A stretch of DNA of 34,105 nucleotides, taken from UHGV virus genome UHGV-0177136, one strand, 5' to 3'. The position numbers were made by a program, and so were the translations under genes. Origin of the DNA: a virus. This document shows positions 4,496 to 10,664 of the stretch, in pieces. The notes under the pieces are model-generated. The model ran no database searches, was not told the origin of the DNA, and worked only from the letters and a program-made list of their open reading frames with translations. Numbering within the stretch: the first letter of the stretch is position 1; the number at the start of each line of letters is the position of its first letter.

Positions 4496-5376
4496 ACACT
4501 CCTCGTCAGTATTCTGGCGGCCATTGCACTTAATCCCGGAGACATGCGGTTGAATGCTGTGCCGGCGGCGTTAAGCTGCCCGGAAACGGTATCCAGAGCA
4601 CCTGCAATATTTCTTTTGTCCACACCACTCAGCGCCGACTGCGCCTGCTGTACATACGTGGCTGCCTCACTGGCTGTTCTGGCCAGACTGATGGCATCGG
4701 GCATGGATTCAGAGAGTGCATTAAACGCCGGAACACTTTTCCCCAGAGCTCCGGATATATTACCCAGTCCGCTCATCAGTCCCGGCACACGGGTCAGCGC
4801 GACAACGGGGTTACCCTTCATTTTCTGCGCCACCCGAACGGCACTGATAGTGGTCTGGAGTACAGACTGCGCCTGTTTCGCATAGTTGACGCCGTTACGG
4901 ACGAACTGCGCCACCCCGGAAGGCGATGGAACAGCACCCGATACAGCTCCGGCACCGGGAACCTGCCTGCGTATTGCCGGCGGTTGCAGAGGATTTTTCG
5001 GGTCACCGGTGTATTCCCGGAGAGACACGGTGGCACTGACAACCAGCACGTTACCGGTGCTGTCTGTCTGCTCGCTGGTTGCGGTCACATCGGTAATCAC
5101 GAACCAGCCGCGATAGTCACCGTTGCCGAAGACCAGCGCCAGTGCCTGATGGGCCTTCATGGCTGTTCGCACTCTCGCCAGCTCCACGTCGGGCACACAA
5201 TAATGCTGATGGAAGACCAGGCTTATCTGGATTTCGTCCAGCCTGTCGCCGACAAACTGCAGGCCGGGTTTACCCTCGATGCGGGCATGCTCCGCATAAT
5301 CGACGCCGAACGTGGCCTCGAAGCCGTCCCAGTAGGTAATCAGTTCAAACTCAATATCACCCAGTACGGCAAACAT
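4492..5376 (-). CDS. tail protein, gpU / DNA-circularisation-protein-like
   Basis: 294-aa ORF immediately downstream of the tape measure gene; N-terminal region resembles P2 gpU-type tail proteins; C-terminal Ala/Ser/Gly-rich extension. Confidence 0.55.
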   Translation of the reverse strand: MFAVLGDIEFELITYWDGFEATFGVDYAEHARIEGKPGLQFVGDRLDEIQISLVFHQHYCVPDVELARVRTAMKAHQALALVFGNGDYRGWFVITDVTATSEQTDSTGNVLVVSATVSLREYTGDPKNPLQPPAIRRQVPGAGAVSGAVPSPSGVAQFVRNGVNYAKQAQSVLQTTISAVRVAQKMKGNPVVALTRVPGLMSGLGNISGALGKSVPAFNALSESMPDAISLARTASEAATYVQQAQSALSGVDKRNIAGALDTVSGQLNAAGTAFNRMSPGLSAMAARILTRSV

Positions 5377-7841
5377 CAGCTGTACTCCTTACGTTGTTTC
5401 TGAGCCAGCAGACGCTCCAGCATTTTTTCCAGCTCATGCAGGCTCATATTCAGGGCACCAGTCAGCCCGGCAGGCGCTGCGGTTTCCTTACCATTGAGGA
5501 AAAACTGAGGATTAAAGCTGACCTGGATACCGCCAGACGCTCCACCGCCAGTTGCAGTTGCGCCACGGCCTGAATATCCGGCAGCCATGATTTCCGGCGA
5601 CGGGATACGGGGAACATCCGGTGTCATTTCAGCGGCCAGGCGCTGCCCGGCCAGTGCAGCAAGCGGAGTGGTCCGTTGCAGGCCAATGGCGGCACCCTGC
5701 GCGATATTGTCACCAAAGCCCATAAACACGCGACTCGGTGAATGAATGCCCAGCTTTTCGCTGAACCAGTCACTGATGCTGTCACCCATTCCGGTTACGC
5801 TGGTTTTGAGTGACGCCCATTTGTTTCTGATGCCATTTATCAACCCGTCAATAAGATGACCACCGAAGTCGGTGAATTTCGCCGGCAGATCAACGCCGAG
5901 ATATTTCAGCGCAGCCGCAAAGGCTTTATAAAGCAGACCAGCCGGAGACCAGTTAACCAGCAGTTTACCAATTCCCACGATGCCGCCGTTAAAGGCTTCC
6001 TGAATGTCAGCCCAGCGCTGTTTAAACCAGCTACTGACTGCGCCCCAGTTGCGGTAGATAAGGTAAGCTGCTGCCGCGACGGCGGTGATAACGAGACCGA
6101 TGGGATTCATCAGCAGCGCCCGGCCAATCCAGAGAACGGCACGCCCGGCGTTCATAATTCCGCGAACCAGCCCCCCTGAGAGCACACCACCCAGTGTTCT
6201 GGCTCCTCTGGCGACAGCACCAAAGCCTGTCACCAGCCAGCGGAGTTTACCGCCTTCCCCCAGTGCGAGCGTCAGACGAAGCCAGTTGGCCCGAAGTAAA
6301 ACAGCATTTTTCCAGACGCTTACAAAGGGGGAAAGAAGGAGATTCAGCCCAAGCTTGAGACCGATAGTGGCCATCCTGAAAGCGAGTAATGCGCCCACAA
6401 CCTTTATGGTGCTGCTGACGAGCTGCGGATTTGCCGCTATCCATTTGCCAACACTGTCCATTAAAGGAATAAATGTTTCACCCAACTGGAGCAAAGCCGG
6501 ACGCAAGGATTGCCCGATGCTGATAGCAGAATCATTAAAGCCGATCTGCATTCTGCGCCAGCGACCTTCAAGCGTATCATTCTGCTTTGCAGCATCCTTA
6601 TCCAGGGTAGACATTGCTGCCGGAGCATTCATTTCCTGCTTACTGGAAAGGTATTTATCCCAGCCCTGTCGCATTGACAGTAAATGGTTGACAGTCTGAA
6701 TATCGGTAAAGACCTCAGCCAGACCAAATGACTCCATGAGTTTCTGCTGACCTTCCTGATCGCCTCTTGCTCCTGCAGCTTTCCATTGCTGCAAGAACGC
6801 TTTGCCTTTACTGTCGATAAAACGGTTGGCAATCATCAGTGAAGCTTCGTACTGCGAAAAACCCTGAGCGACGTAATTCTGCATTGACCCCTGGTAATCC
6901 ACCCCGGCTTTAGCATATTTCTGGATGGTATCTCCGCGGCCCATTGCTGCCAGCCAGTTGGACATATTGGTGACCGCTTCCTCTGCAGAGCCACTACCTT
7001 TACCGACCTCCAGACTGGCAACAATCTGGGTAATCGCATCTTTTCCATAAATACCACGAGCAGCGAAGGCTTTAGCCATACCGGGTAATGCTTTTGCCAT
7101 ATCCTTCAGCTCAAATGACCCAAGTTTGGCTCCTGTTGCCGCAATACCAAACGCCTGTTCAAGTTCTTTCGCATCAGTGATTCTGAGTGCATCGCTGAAG
7201 GCATAAGTCATTTTGGCAAGGTCGGTCATATCGGCTTTGGTTGCTGTAGCGGTCTTTCCAAGCATCTCTGCAAACGTTGCTGCCCGTTCGGGGGCCATAC
7301 CATCAGCAACTAATTGTCCGACTCCCCCTAACAGAGACTCCTGCAGTTGGTTAACCTTCAGCGAGGCCTGTTTGATAGCCTGGCCAATTGCACGTTCCTG
7401 TTTTGCATCCAGGTCTCCTGTGACACTGATATCCCGCAACTGTGATTCAAACGAGGCATATTGTTTAACCGAGGCCATGACCGGTGCGCCCAGCGTTCTG
7501 CCAATAGCATAGGTTTCTGCACCCTGACCATAGAGCGCCAGGCGGTTAGCCTTCAACGCATCACCGATGGCTGATACTGCTGACAGACGGCGCTGCTGAC
7601 GTTCAATTTGCTCCATGGTGCGGCTTACCCGCAGCAGCTCGCTGTTGAGATGCTGCATCCGGGAAGAACCCAGTTGACCATAACGTTCTGTTGCACGGGT
7701 TAAAGCGTTCTGACGTTCCTGCAGGCGGCGTGAGGTATCGCTCAGGGAATCAAGCGCACGGCGGGTACCGCTCATTGCAGAACGGAATGTGCTGCCAACC
7801 ATCCCGCCGATAACAACGCCGACTGAAAACTGTCCCGACAT
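5376..7841 (-). CDS. tail tape measure protein
   Basis: 821-aa ORF, largest in the tail module, downstream of the chaperone pair; Ala/Gly-rich with hydrophobic segments typical of tape measure proteins. Confidence 0.8.
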   Translation of the reverse strand: MSGQFSVGVVIGGMVGSTFRSAMSGTRRALDSLSDTSRRLQERQNALTRATERYGQLGSSRMQHLNSELLRVSRTMEQIERQQRRLSAVSAIGDALKANRLALYGQGAETYAIGRTLGAPVMASVKQYASFESQLRDISVTGDLDAKQERAIGQAIKQASLKVNQLQESLLGGVGQLVADGMAPERAATFAEMLGKTATATKADMTDLAKMTYAFSDALRITDAKELEQAFGIAATGAKLGSFELKDMAKALPGMAKAFAARGIYGKDAITQIVASLEVGKGSGSAEEAVTNMSNWLAAMGRGDTIQKYAKAGVDYQGSMQNYVAQGFSQYEASLMIANRFIDSKGKAFLQQWKAAGARGDQEGQQKLMESFGLAEVFTDIQTVNHLLSMRQGWDKYLSSKQEMNAPAAMSTLDKDAAKQNDTLEGRWRRMQIGFNDSAISIGQSLRPALLQLGETFIPLMDSVGKWIAANPQLVSSTIKVVGALLAFRMATIGLKLGLNLLLSPFVSVWKNAVLLRANWLRLTLALGEGGKLRWLVTGFGAVARGARTLGGVLSGGLVRGIMNAGRAVLWIGRALLMNPIGLVITAVAAAAYLIYRNWGAVSSWFKQRWADIQEAFNGGIVGIGKLLVNWSPAGLLYKAFAAALKYLGVDLPAKFTDFGGHLIDGLINGIRNKWASLKTSVTGMGDSISDWFSEKLGIHSPSRVFMGFGDNIAQGAAIGLQRTTPLAALAGQRLAAEMTPDVPRIPSPEIMAAGYSGRGATATGGGASGGIQVSFNPQFFLNGKETAAPAGLTGALNMSLHELEKMLERLLAQKQRKEYS

Positions 7842-7916
7842 AGTGGTTAACCTCCGGGGAAGGTGAAAAGACGTGAGGGGATAACGCAGAACAGCCGCTA
7901 CTGGCGGCTGTCTGTA

Positions 7917-8174
7917 CTATGATTTGTCGCCGAACTCGCTTTTGATTTGCACTTCAGCCTGCTCCAGCCACATCTCCAGATCGTCAGTATCGAGGGCATC
8001 AATCTCCCCCGGTTGAAACCTGAACCATCTCGCCAGCAGGCCCTGCGCCTGCATCAGTGTTTTTGTCGCTCTTGCCCAGCCCAGTGATTTTCTGAAATCG
8101 TTTCTGCAGCTCCATATAGTCGGCAAGATCCATGTTATCGAGGTCTTCCGGGAGGATACCGGTGCTACGGGCAA
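7917..8174 (-). other. overlapping ORF in the +1 frame relative to the chaperone ORF, candidate frameshift extension (GT-like)
   Basis: 85-codon ORF overlapping the 3' half of 7999..8340 and extending 82 bp beyond its stop, at the conserved position of programmed-frameshift tail chaperones. Confidence 0.45.
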
Positions 8175-8340
8175 TCAGTGGTTCGTCCCAGTCTGCCGGG
8201 TCTTTGTTGATTTTGCGCACCTGCTTCAGGTCTTTTACTGTCAGGCGTTTCAGTTCAATCTGTTCAATTCTGGTACCTGCAGCAGTGGTGAAAGGATAAG
8301 ACAGCGTAAAAGTATCGGACTGGGTCTGTGACATGATCAT
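7999..8340 (-). CDS. tail assembly chaperone (G-like)
   Basis: 113-aa ORF between tube and tape measure genes; RBS AAGGAGT upstream of ATG at 8340. Confidence 0.6.
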   Translation of the reverse strand: MIMSQTQSDTFTLSYPFTTAAGTRIEQIELKRLTVKDLKQVRKINKDPADWDEPLIARSTGILPEDLDNMDLADYMELQKRFQKITGLGKSDKNTDAGAGPAGEMVQVSTGGD

Positions 8341-8355
8341 ACTCCTTTGTAAATT

Positions 8356-8409: not shown

Positions 8410-8425
8410 AGGGGCCGGAGCCCCT
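8410..8425 (-). terminator. short GC hairpin (AGGGGC-TCCG-GCCCCT, minus sense) followed by TCTTCTTAAT; candidate terminator after the tube-region genes
   Basis: Perfect 6-bp stem with 4-nt loop just downstream of the stop of ORF 8432..8713. Confidence 0.35.
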
Positions 8426-8431
8426 GTGATG

Positions 8432-8713
8432 TCAGCAAGTGCGAAAACCCTTGCAGTTACGCAGGAAAGCGATGAGAAGCGCCTTTCCCTCAGATTTGCC
8501 GGTGCCGGAGAACCAGTGGTCGGGCGGCTCCCATGCTTCAATCAAATCGGCCAGTTTGCGGGCCTTTGAACGTGTGCAGTCAATCGGGTCATTGGTTTTA
8601 CGGGTATTAAAGAGGGTCTCCACCCCCGGAATATCAAGGAGGGTAAACCACGTACCATTTGACATGCCCAGTGACGCACATCGCCCTCCTTTGTCAGTCA
8701 GTTCAACACTCAC
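8432..8713 (-). CDS. hypothetical protein
   Basis: 93-aa ORF directly after the tail tube gene; no recognisable motif. Confidence 0.4.
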   Translation of the reverse strand: MSVELTDKGGRCASLGMSNGTWFTLLDIPGVETLFNTRKTNDPIDCTRSKARKLADLIEAWEPPDHWFSGTGKSEGKALLIAFLRNCKGFRTC

Positions 8714-8715
8714 CG

Positions 8716-9237
8716 TCAGCCCCCGATATTGATTCGATAGTCAGTCAGTTGATCAACGCCACCGACGCGGAAGATGTTGGCCAGATAGTCCAGTTGCAGC
8801 AACTCTTCACCATCCAGTACCTGTCTGATATACGTGCAGGTGAAGCTACTGGAGAACTCGGCGTTCTCGTGCTGTTTGAACGTCCCCAGCGGGTTCTTCT
8901 TGAACATAATTGTCAGGAAGGTGACCAGCGGGATTTCGTCGATCAGCCCCTGCGAGCTGTAGCGCTGGACGCTGGAGCGACACTGCAGCGCCAGCGACTT
9001 GTACGGGTTCGCGGCAGACAACATCGCATCGCGGTAAAAGCTGTTCCATTTGATTTCGCCTTCCAGTTTGTCAAAACCAGCCGGGAGTTCCACCTTACCC
9101 ACCATCCCCAGTGCCTTGTGCTCCTGCATAATCATGGAGACATCGGGGAGTTTAACTTCCTCAGCCCGTCCCAGCAGGTTAGTACCATCCAGATAGATGT
9201 TGGCATTCGTGATTCGGTTTATCTCAATCTTTGACAT
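8716..9237 (-). CDS. tail tube protein
   Basis: 173-aa ORF immediately after the sheath gene; size and position typical of P2 FII / Mu M-type tube proteins. Confidence 0.75.
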   Translation of the reverse strand: MSKIEINRITNANIYLDGTNLLGRAEEVKLPDVSMIMQEHKALGMVGKVELPAGFDKLEGEIKWNSFYRDAMLSAANPYKSLALQCRSSVQRYSSQGLIDEIPLVTFLTIMFKKNPLGTFKQHENAEFSSSFTCTYIRQVLDGEELLQLDYLANIFRVGGVDQLTDYRINIGG

Positions 9238-10664
9238 CAGTTGCCCCCTTTCAGGGTTAACAGGTATTCCGAGGTGATTTCAGTCTCAAACGTCAGTCGC
9301 TCCAGCGGCGGTGGTGGCGTATATTTGTAGCTCAGCAACAGGTGCCCGGCGGCCAGCTCCGTCTCCGGATTGCGGGCCGGATCAAACCAGCAACGGAAGC
9401 CCAGTACCGCACCATCACCAGTCATTTTGCGACCGTAGGCGTTGACCGACTCCGTCAGTGCATCAATCAGCGCCTGAGTAATCGGCATGTCGATGTACTG
9501 CTGGCTGAAGTAACGAATGGACTCGTTGATCACATCACCGGTGCGGCGAACGTTCTCAAAGTTACGCATATGGGTGACCGTTGGCCATGCCGCCGTCCGG
9601 TTACCCCACAGACGAAGGCCGCTGCCGTAACTGCTGAATACCGTGGTGATCCCCTGTTCGTTAAGCAGGTTCACCTCGCTCTGCGGATCGTCAATCATTG
9701 CCGACAGCTGGCGCTCCACGCCGGTGATCCCCAGAATTTCCTGATTGGAGGATGACCACCAGTACCCTTTGTCCAGGTCGACTTTGGCACGCAGGCCCGC
9801 CGCACGCTGGCTCAGTGGCTCCAGACGCTCCGTGTTCGTCACCGGGTCATATACCTTCACATGCGGGTAGCACAGGCGGACACGGTCAGAGCTGGTATTA
9901 AAGTTAATGGTGCCTTCCGGGCCACGTCCCGCCAGAGCCTGCGCAAAAGTGGTACCAACCGGCGCATCAATATAGGTTACTGCTCCCAGTTTCTCAGCCA
10001 TGGCGATAAGCTCAACCGAGACGCTGTTCTGGGTGCAGAATACCGGAGCAATCAGGATTTTGGCGAAGTAGCCAAACAGGTTAAAACTGTCGTTAAGCAG
10101 CTTCATGCCGGTACGGTTGCCTGCAGCGTTAACGGTACCGATGATATCAGCCGGGGTGACTTTGGTCGGATCAGCATAGTTATAGCTGGCCTTCACCGTT
10201 GCATCTGCAGCAATGCTTTTACCCAGGTTAGTAATCACCCCGGTCTGTGCATCAAGCGAGTAGTCCTGACCTTCAACATAAGGCTGACCGTCGCTGTCCG
10301 GTTTCAGTACCAGTTGCGCGACCACCGGATTAGCCAGCCGGGCTCTGCCTGTCGCCTTGTCGAACGACACATTCTCACTGACCACAGCGGTTTTATGCAC
10401 AGACGGATCGAGTACGTTAATGACCAGAACGGTGCCTGCACCATGGTCATAAATCGCATCCAGCGCCTGCGGAATGGTAAAGCCGGTGAACTGGCTGCCA
10501 AATGCCGCAGCGTCTTTCTCAGACAGGCACTGTACCAGCGTATTGACATCCCCCATCGGGGCGGTACCAATCAGGCCAATAACGGCAGATTTCACCGTTT
10601 TTACCGGGCGGGCTCCGTTTTCCACCTCAATGGTTTCGACGCCATGCAGATAGTTAGCTGCCAT
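9237..10664 (-). CDS. contractile tail sheath protein
   Basis: 475-aa ORF preceding the tube gene; size and order typical of sheath proteins. Confidence 0.8.
   Translation of the reverse strand: MAANYLHGVETIEVENGARPVKTVKSAVIGLIGTAPMGDVNTLVQCLSEKDAAAFGSQFTGFTIPQALDAIYDHGAGTVLVINVLDPSVHKTAVVSENVSFDKATGRARLANPVVAQLVLKPDSDGQPYVEGQDYSLDAQTGVITNLGKSIAADATVKASYNYADPTKVTPADIIGTVNAAGNRTGMKLLNDSFNLFGYFAKILIAPVFCTQNSVSVELIAMAEKLGAVTYIDAPVGTTFAQALAGRGPEGTINFNTSSDRVRLCYPHVKVYDPVTNTERLEPLSQRAAGLRAKVDLDKGYWWSSSNQEILGITGVERQLSAMIDDPQSEVNLLNEQGITTVFSSYGSGLRLWGNRTAAWPTVTHMRNFENVRRTGDVINESIRYFSQQYIDMPITQALIDALTESVNAYGRKMTGDGAVLGFRCWFDPARNPETELAAGHLLLSYKYTPPPPLERLTFETEITSEYLLTLKGGN

Follow-up and report, generated by a model that had tools for sequence, protein, structure and literature searches.

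A conserved TTT_C as the proposed +1 slip site in the tail assembly chaperone gene of a BcepMu-like prophage

The tail assembly chaperone gene found at 8334..7999 on the minus strand of the virus genome UHGV-0177136 probably gives rise to two products, a 111-aa chaperone and a 138-aa fusion that would be made when a minority of ribosomes undergo a +1 slip with tRNA-Phe on UUU_C. Throughout this text, the window means the whole stretch of DNA that was analysed, with its 34,105 nucleotides. The proposed slip site is CGA_TTT_C, placed at 8100..8094 of the minus strand (TTT at 8097..8095 and C at 8094), and it was pointed to by the invariance of TTT_C, by the limits that stop codons impose and by a preference for CGA before the Phe codon. 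A preliminary description of this DNA had proposed a programmed frameshift between two overlapping ORFs, with an A-rich run as one candidate slip site. The frameshift was retained in the present analysis, whereas the A-run was replaced by the conserved CGA_TTT_C, which lies ~30 bases upstream of it. The G/GT class and the P2 E family to which this locus belongs are known; what is new is an unannotated +1 member with an uncommon slip site.

The minus strand of the window carries a contractile-tail module in which the tail sheath gene (10664..9237), the tail tube gene (9237..8716; PF04985, E 2e-53), a small conserved ORF of 93 aa (8713..8432), the chaperone gene and the tape measure gene (7841..5376; PF10145, E 3e-15) follow each other in that order. 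This module belongs to a BcepMu-like (Bcepmuvirus-type) prophage. Identity over the region is 93% with E. coli phage PhiKM, which is placed in Bcepmuvirus, and ~84% with Klebsiella phage KP12 and with phage Phi06_2974B; Burkholderia phage BcepMu is a further relative. The chaperone region was found in 637 of 5,426 complete E. coli genomes (~12%). The small ORF, the one extra gene that intervenes upstream of the chaperone in the interval between tube and tape measure, presented a weak DUF7739 match and a match to phrog_1239 (E 5e-48), of unknown function; PhiKM, KP12 and E. coli prophages carry it, and BcepMu, phiE255 and the Salmonella relative lack it at this place. Two hairpins were also observed in the module. 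A GC-rich terminator-like hairpin, AGGGGCTCCGGCCCCT followed by TCTTCTTAAT, occupies 8410..8425 of the minus strand, within the tail operon, between the DUF7739 ORF, whose stop is near 8432, and the chaperone start at 8334. The other is a perfect 8-bp hairpin, ACAGCCGC-CAGTA-GCGGCTGT, at 7891..7911 of the same strand, 5 nt past the stop codon of the +1-frame segment and before the tape measure gene. Its stem was invariant and its loop variable in the alignment with PhiKM, KP12 and Phi06_2974B, and it may act as an attenuator or have a part in mRNA stability or processing.

The architecture first described for this locus was reproduced from the ORF list, the Pfam matches of the neighbouring genes and the sequence itself. 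An ORF of 113 codons (8340..7999, minus strand) lies between the tube and tape measure genes and is overlapped, in the +1 (= -2) register, by an ORF of 85 codons (8174..7917, minus strand) that runs 82 nt beyond the stop of the former. The frame-0 gene, hereafter G, matched PF10109 Phage_TAC_7 (E 1.5e-22) with 79.8 bits, and the predicted fusion scored 85 bits, above the gathering threshold of 25 bits. Its translation probably begins at the second ATG, at 8334, giving 111 aa before the TGA at 8001..7999, since this is the sole ATG conserved in relatives, stands 7 nt downstream of the Shine-Dalgarno sequence AGGAG (8342..8346, minus strand; conserved in the alignment of relatives) and is the start chosen by RefSeq, while the in-frame ATG further upstream, at 8340, is specific to the window. 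In RefSeq, the 111-aa form is annotated as 'phage tail assembly protein', and in the one RefSeq locus inspected (H38), the short ORF alone was annotated.

The segment that would be read after the shift, hereafter T, comprises 58 codons and the TAG at 7919..7917 (7917..8093, minus strand), and its translation matched phrog_8286 (E 8e-32), a family labelled 'unknown function' in PHROGs. The conserved core of this domain, LLARWFRFQPGEIDALDTDDLEMWLEQAEVQIKSEFGDKS, corresponds to 7920..8039 of the minus strand and was delimited by tblastn in the +1 frame, by third-position substitutions and by alignment. In a tblastn set of 63 loci in all, ranging from Enterobacterales to Burkholderiales, the core LLARWFRFQPGEIDALDTDDLEMWLEQAEVQIK was found in the +1 frame of every genome-contig locus with a G domain, except for two in-frame variants and two Pasteurellaceae loci that carry T in the -1 frame. 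The +1 layout was present in 59 distinct genome loci, and it was found again in 63 of the 64 distinct viral loci of an independent IMG/VR set; BcepMu, phiE255 and Pseudomonas phage Komp_PAO1_1 displayed the same arrangement. The +1 register assigned to the second ORF from the letters of the window was in this way seen to recur in ~120 distinct related loci.

The pattern of substitutions agrees with translation of both frames in succession. Upstream of the overlap, the most variable columns were third positions of frame 0 (1.16 bits versus 0.70 and 0.49), and past the frame-0 stop, they were third positions of the +1 frame (1.13 bits versus 0.54 and 0.48). Codon-position variability followed frame 0 before the TTT and the +1 frame from ~30 nt after it, and the first nine codons past the TTT showed a mixed pattern, as expected of a linker read in two frames. 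Moreover, conservation of the T-frame protein holds at 30–50% identity across Enterobacterales, Burkholderiales and others. With PF06528 Phage_P2_GpE, the extension aligned over model positions 4–36 of 37 at 17 bits (E 0.004), a score below the 23-bit gathering threshold, while a profile of 21 extensions compared by hhalign with the E' peptide of phage P2, the part of gpE+E' that is produced by the P2 frameshift, gave a probability of 91.7% (E 7.6e-7). Searches of NCBIfam and PDB sequences returned zero matches. Judged from the profile comparison, the +1 extension and the P2 E' frameshift extension are homologous, though divergent. In other relatives, the T domain was found in the -1 frame, and the end of the G gene holds a canonical X_XXY_YYZ heptamer, which is G_GGA_AAG in three Pasteurellaceae loci (Pasteurella phage AFS-2018a, Volucribacter and Mannheimia), G_GGT_TTT in Vibrio phage Valp1 and T_TTT_TTG in a P2-like phage (L075).

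It was considered whether the +1 ORF could be expressed without a fusion, as a separate small protein made by internal initiation or reinitiation. Gene callers and PHROGs do treat T as a separate small ORF (phrog_8286; P0093 and P0094), and the T frame of the window possesses a TTG at 8174 and an ATG 15 nt ahead of the T core. Nevertheless, no start codon or Shine-Dalgarno sequence for the T frame was conserved across the loci examined: no start kept its position, five loci contained neither ATG nor GTG nor TTG in the stretch from the upstream stop to the conserved core, and a weak SD-like tetramer was seen in just 8 of 59 loci. Inspection of the window sequence likewise revealed no in-frame T start overlapping the frame-0 stop. 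Moreover, the homologous P2 E' is made solely as a fusion, and the -1 relatives carry canonical slippery heptamers. Independent translation is therefore regarded as improbable. Still less credible, and hardly worth entertaining, is the reading of the +1 ORF as a non-coding shadow frame, open by chance or composition. Many alternative-frame ORFs of ~85 codons occur on both strands of the window, so that the length of this ORF carries no weight and its significance derives from conservation. However, protein conservation, the excess of variability at +1-frame third positions, the homology with P2 E' and a frame that stays open in ~120 distinct loci oppose this reading, which is effectively refuted by the comparative data. 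On the same comparative grounds, the chaperone is genuinely extended by coding sequence in the +1 frame. Conservation of the frame, homology with P2 E', the existence of -1 relatives with heptamers and the lack of a conserved start codon make a G-T fusion by recoding much likelier than an independent product or a shadow frame. The proposal of a G/GT-type chaperone pair, which the Phage_TAC_7 match also favours, was upheld: the 3' end of the first ORF is overlapped, in a different frame, by a conserved second ORF devoid of initiation signals of its own, and the overlap contains a conserved slippery sequence, TTT_C, which is of the +1 type and not a -1 heptamer.

The position of the shift could be narrowed down by the stop codons of relatives. 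On the upstream side, the T frame opens just 8 nt before the TTT in seven genome loci and seven distinct viral loci (six contexts displayed). On the downstream side, frame 0 ends at once in L066, a locus on a MAG contig that reads TTT TTT CGC TGA and is the tightest delimiter, and it ends 18–27 nt past the TTT codon in L058, L059, L061, L063 and L064. The entire overlap measures 29 nt in L167–L172, and in L167, TTT_C is the sole site at which a tRNA could re-pair. Taken together, these stop codons intersect at ~14 nt around TTT_C, a zone within which TTT followed by C is the sole element conserved in all 59 genome and 63 viral loci. Considered alone, the enteric clade bounds the site less tightly, at -72..+17 relative to the T core. 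By these stop codons, the shift is confined to ~14 nt around the invariant TTT_C.

Constraint at the nucleotide level was also apparent at this site. TTT_C was invariant in 59/59 genome loci and 63/63 viral loci with T in the +1 frame (122 distinct loci), and the TTT was kept even in 19 loci with a GC content of at least 0.58, though their flanking genes use TTC for 75–95% of Phe codons. A naive calculation of TTT retention gave log10 P of -15.5 for these 19 high-GC loci and -29 overall, values that ignore phylogeny, overstate significance and are to be read as upper bounds on it, since the loci are phylogenetically related. The frame-0 residue after the Phe varies (Gln, His, Leu or Arg), but its codon always begins with C. 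Where an Arg precedes the Phe, it is encoded by CGA in 44 of 45 loci, compared with a background of ~10% among Arg codons. In the +1 frame, a conserved Trp was found 4–6 residues past the Phe, in divergent clades with different frame-0 tails or with none. It was noticed that, among L001–L191, the context of the site takes one of two forms, CGA_TTT_C[A/T]N, with Arg before the Phe, or N[C/T]N_TTT_CGN, with Arg after it, with few exceptions (ACA, AAA, GCG or CGG before TTT_CAG, and TTT_TTT_CAA); this dichotomy may reflect either a need for a basic residue at the protein level or a role of CGN in slippage. In principle, the TTT could have been retained by a dual-coding constraint with the shift taking place 1–3 codons upstream of it, but no re-pairing site exists there.

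According to the proposed mechanism, most ribosomes would translate G as far as the TGA at 8001..7999 and release the 111-aa chaperone, while a minority would shift +1 with tRNA-Phe in the P site on UUU (8097..8095). This tRNA, whose anticodon is GAA, would leave a G:U wobble on UUU and re-pair perfectly with the overlapping UUC (8096..8094), after which decoding would resume at AGA (8093..8091) and proceed to the TAG at 7919..7917. In this way, 80 aa of G would be joined to 58 aa of T in a predicted fusion of 138 aa, MSQ...LQKRF followed by RKSLGWARATKTLMQAQGLLARWF...GDKS. If lambda G/GT and P2 E/E+E' are taken as a guide, the role of the G part would be to bind the tape measure protein, and that of the T part to bring in tube subunits. 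Slippage by +1 is already established for the tetramer UUU_C, known from the influenza PA-X site UCC_UUU_CGU, for which a higher affinity of tRNA-Phe for UUC was reported (PMC3498833), and a bacterial cell-free screen counted tetramers of the TTT_C type among its efficient +1 sites (bioRxiv 10.1101/2025.10.02.679949). As in PA-X, the window has an in-frame UUU followed by C, in CGA TTT CAG at 8100..8092; however, its frame-0 A-site codon is CAG, and not a slow (rare) one. The A-site codons across loci (CAG, CAA, CTG, CGC and similar) are not rare in their hosts. A common A-site codon lowers the expected efficiency, but not the possibility of slippage.

A search for downstream stimulatory RNA structure, which the preliminary description had suggested, detected none, with a single-sequence z of 0.38 and an RNAalifold energy of -7.6 kcal/mol without compensatory pairs, and inspection of the alignment upstream of the site revealed no conserved SD-like stimulator. 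A low efficiency, which may even be very low, is expected, given that stimulatory structure was not found and that the A-site codon is not rare, and a low efficiency would suit the chaperone ratios reported for lambda (~30:1; PMC5009743) and Mu (frameshift efficiency of ~2%; PMC3498833). It may be speculated that the rare CGA codon, which forms an I:A wobble pair, acts as a stimulator from the E site. A -2 slip from UUU is unlikely, because it would land on GAU (CCU or similar in other clades), and transcriptional slippage, which was also considered, is unlikely on a run of three T. We infer that the shift is ribosomal, that it goes +1 rather than -2, that it is of low efficiency and that it is needed for tail assembly.

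Two homopolymeric runs downstream of TTT_C were weighed as alternative sites. The A-run favoured initially (GACAAAAACACT, 8056..8067, minus strand; GAC AAA AAC, with an in-frame AAA_A) could be the main site in this prophage by a +1 slip of tRNA-Lys, given that AAA_A is a +1-prone tetramer (bioRxiv 10.1101/2025.10.02.679949), that the run lies inside the overlap, so that a fusion made there would keep the whole conserved T core, and that database variants with a 1-nt deletion in the run encode such a fusion (P0001). Against this, the run is missing from the closest relatives, being replaced by AACCAGGGCGCT in PhiKM (AAC CAG GGC) and GACGAAAACGCT in KP12 (GAC GAA AAC), and from all other clades; moreover, changes that are synonymous in the +1 frame and the conserved +1-frame Trp sit upstream of it, and the run is downstream of the point where +1-frame conservation starts. 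We consider it an unlikely main site and, at most, a secondary one specific to the window. The G5 run at 8006..8010 (minus strand; ACC GGG GGA), just before the frame-0 stop, superficially resembles the Mu -2 site, in which the shift takes place on the G run CGG GGG CGA (PMC5009743 and the Mu sequence); its GGG_G permits re-pairing, whether for a -2 or a +1 shift, and it is invariant in the four closest sequences. Nevertheless, in KP12, Phi06_2974B and many further loci, frame 0 is closed by a TAG that precedes the run by 21 nt. The relatives from Salmonella, Pectobacterium and Burkholderiales lack the run. It also sits inside the T core and not upstream of the conserved extension, and a shift there would drop the most conserved T residues (LLARWFRFQP). 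The Pro-Gly-Glu codons of the T frame account for the conservation of the run, and a shift at this point is very improbable; it was excluded as a conserved slip site. The AAA_A and GGG_G tetramers of the window could add minor, window-specific slippage to that at TTT_C. A zone delimited earlier from four close relatives (GAT GCA GGC GCA GGG, ~8053..8041) was discarded, as distant loci place both conservation and stop limits further upstream.

Sporadic in-frame fusions of G and T were also encountered, in L012, L013 and L087 and in the 138-aa database proteins P0001–P0010. Their junctions are scattered single-base indels, located in the A5 run, in the G5 run or upstream of the Phe, and these fusions are uninformative about the slip site on account of that scatter. 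They probably arose by mutation as prophages decayed or through errors of assembly, and some could be viable variants that make GT constitutively.

Tail chaperone frameshifts are textbook examples of recoding. To our knowledge, nearly all the characterised ones are -1 shifts on X_XXY_YYZ heptamers, and we know of no general motif for the +1 cases, which are missed by annotation pipelines for that reason. A defined +1 tetramer, (CGA_)UUU_C, would allow hundreds of enterobacterial and Burkholderia prophages to be annotated correctly, and UUU_C would add a simple natural +1 site for studies of P-site slippage and of the E site in bacteria, while the understanding of tail chaperone function is left unchanged. 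It is tentatively suggested, as a quite possible reading, that a broad BcepMu-like clade, extending from Enterobacterales to Burkholderiales, makes GT by a structure-independent +1 slip of tRNA-Phe on UUU_C, with CGA as an E-site stimulator in most lineages. If this were true, the influenza PA-X site would have a natural equivalent in bacteria, and a single chaperone family would have changed between shifting by -1, as in P2, Pasteurellaceae and Vibrio phages, and shifting by +1 at essentially the same place in the gene. No published description of this +1 site was found in the literature searched, the coverage of which was incomplete, so that an earlier description is possible.

One of the closest known systems is gpE/gpE+E' of phage P2, whose frameshift was reportedly described by Christie et al. 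in 2002. Both belong to the same families, with a G part of PF10109 and a T part related to PF06528 (E'), and in both the gene lies between the tube gene (FII in P2) and the tape measure gene (T in P2), with a Phe/T-rich shift site at the C-terminal end of the G domain; in the hhalign alignment, the P2 Phe falls 3–4 residues from F80 of the window. However, P2 shifts -1 on the heptamer T_TTT_TTG, whereas the window would shift +1 on the tetramer TTT_C after CGA. Lambda gpG/gpGT is similar in that a chaperone and its frameshift-extended form are made in a fixed ratio from a locus between the major tail and tape measure genes (PMC5009743), but no sequence similarity was detected, and lambda is a siphovirus that shifts -1 at G_GGA_AAG.

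Phage Mu, like the element in the window, is a transposable myovirus in which the chaperone is listed in the same Pfam family description and the extension lies in the +1/-2 register, and its gp41/gp41-42 pair arises by a -2 frameshift according to Xu, Hendrix & Duda 2004, as cited in passages of PMC5009743 and PMC3498833. The Mu site, in contrast, is the G run CGG GGG CGA, located 22 codons past a TTC Phe codon, and the tube, sheath and T domain of the window are P2-like and not Mu-like. Mu gp41 (L005, 2553..3140) has TTC, not TTT, at the Phe-Gln pair, and a TGA interrupts the +1 frame between this codon and the G-run slip site, from which it follows that one register is entered at two different sites in Mu and in the BcepMu-like group.

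The BcepMu locus (AY539836; L003, 2707..3468) is orthologous to that of the window, with gp41 as the G gene and gp42 as the +1-frame T ORF. In the AY539836 record, however, gp42 is called 'G', as an analogue of lambda G, and the slippage is put between gp42 and gp43. The sequence comparison indicates that the BcepMu shift is instead between gp41 and gp42, at TCC_TTT_CGC. In phiE255, the region matching gp43 is annotated with a minus-strand membrane-protein gene. The BcepMu site is also close to UCC_UUU_CGU of influenza A PA-X, a system that resembles the one proposed here in the P-site movement of tRNA-Phe from UUU to UUC, the accepted mechanism in PA-X, in the lack of strong RNA structure and in its low efficiency (PMC3498833). 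PA-X differs in being translated by a eukaryotic ribosome and in depending on a rare codon in the A site, whereas the A-site codon here is a common one, as in CGA_UUU_CAG of the enteric clade.
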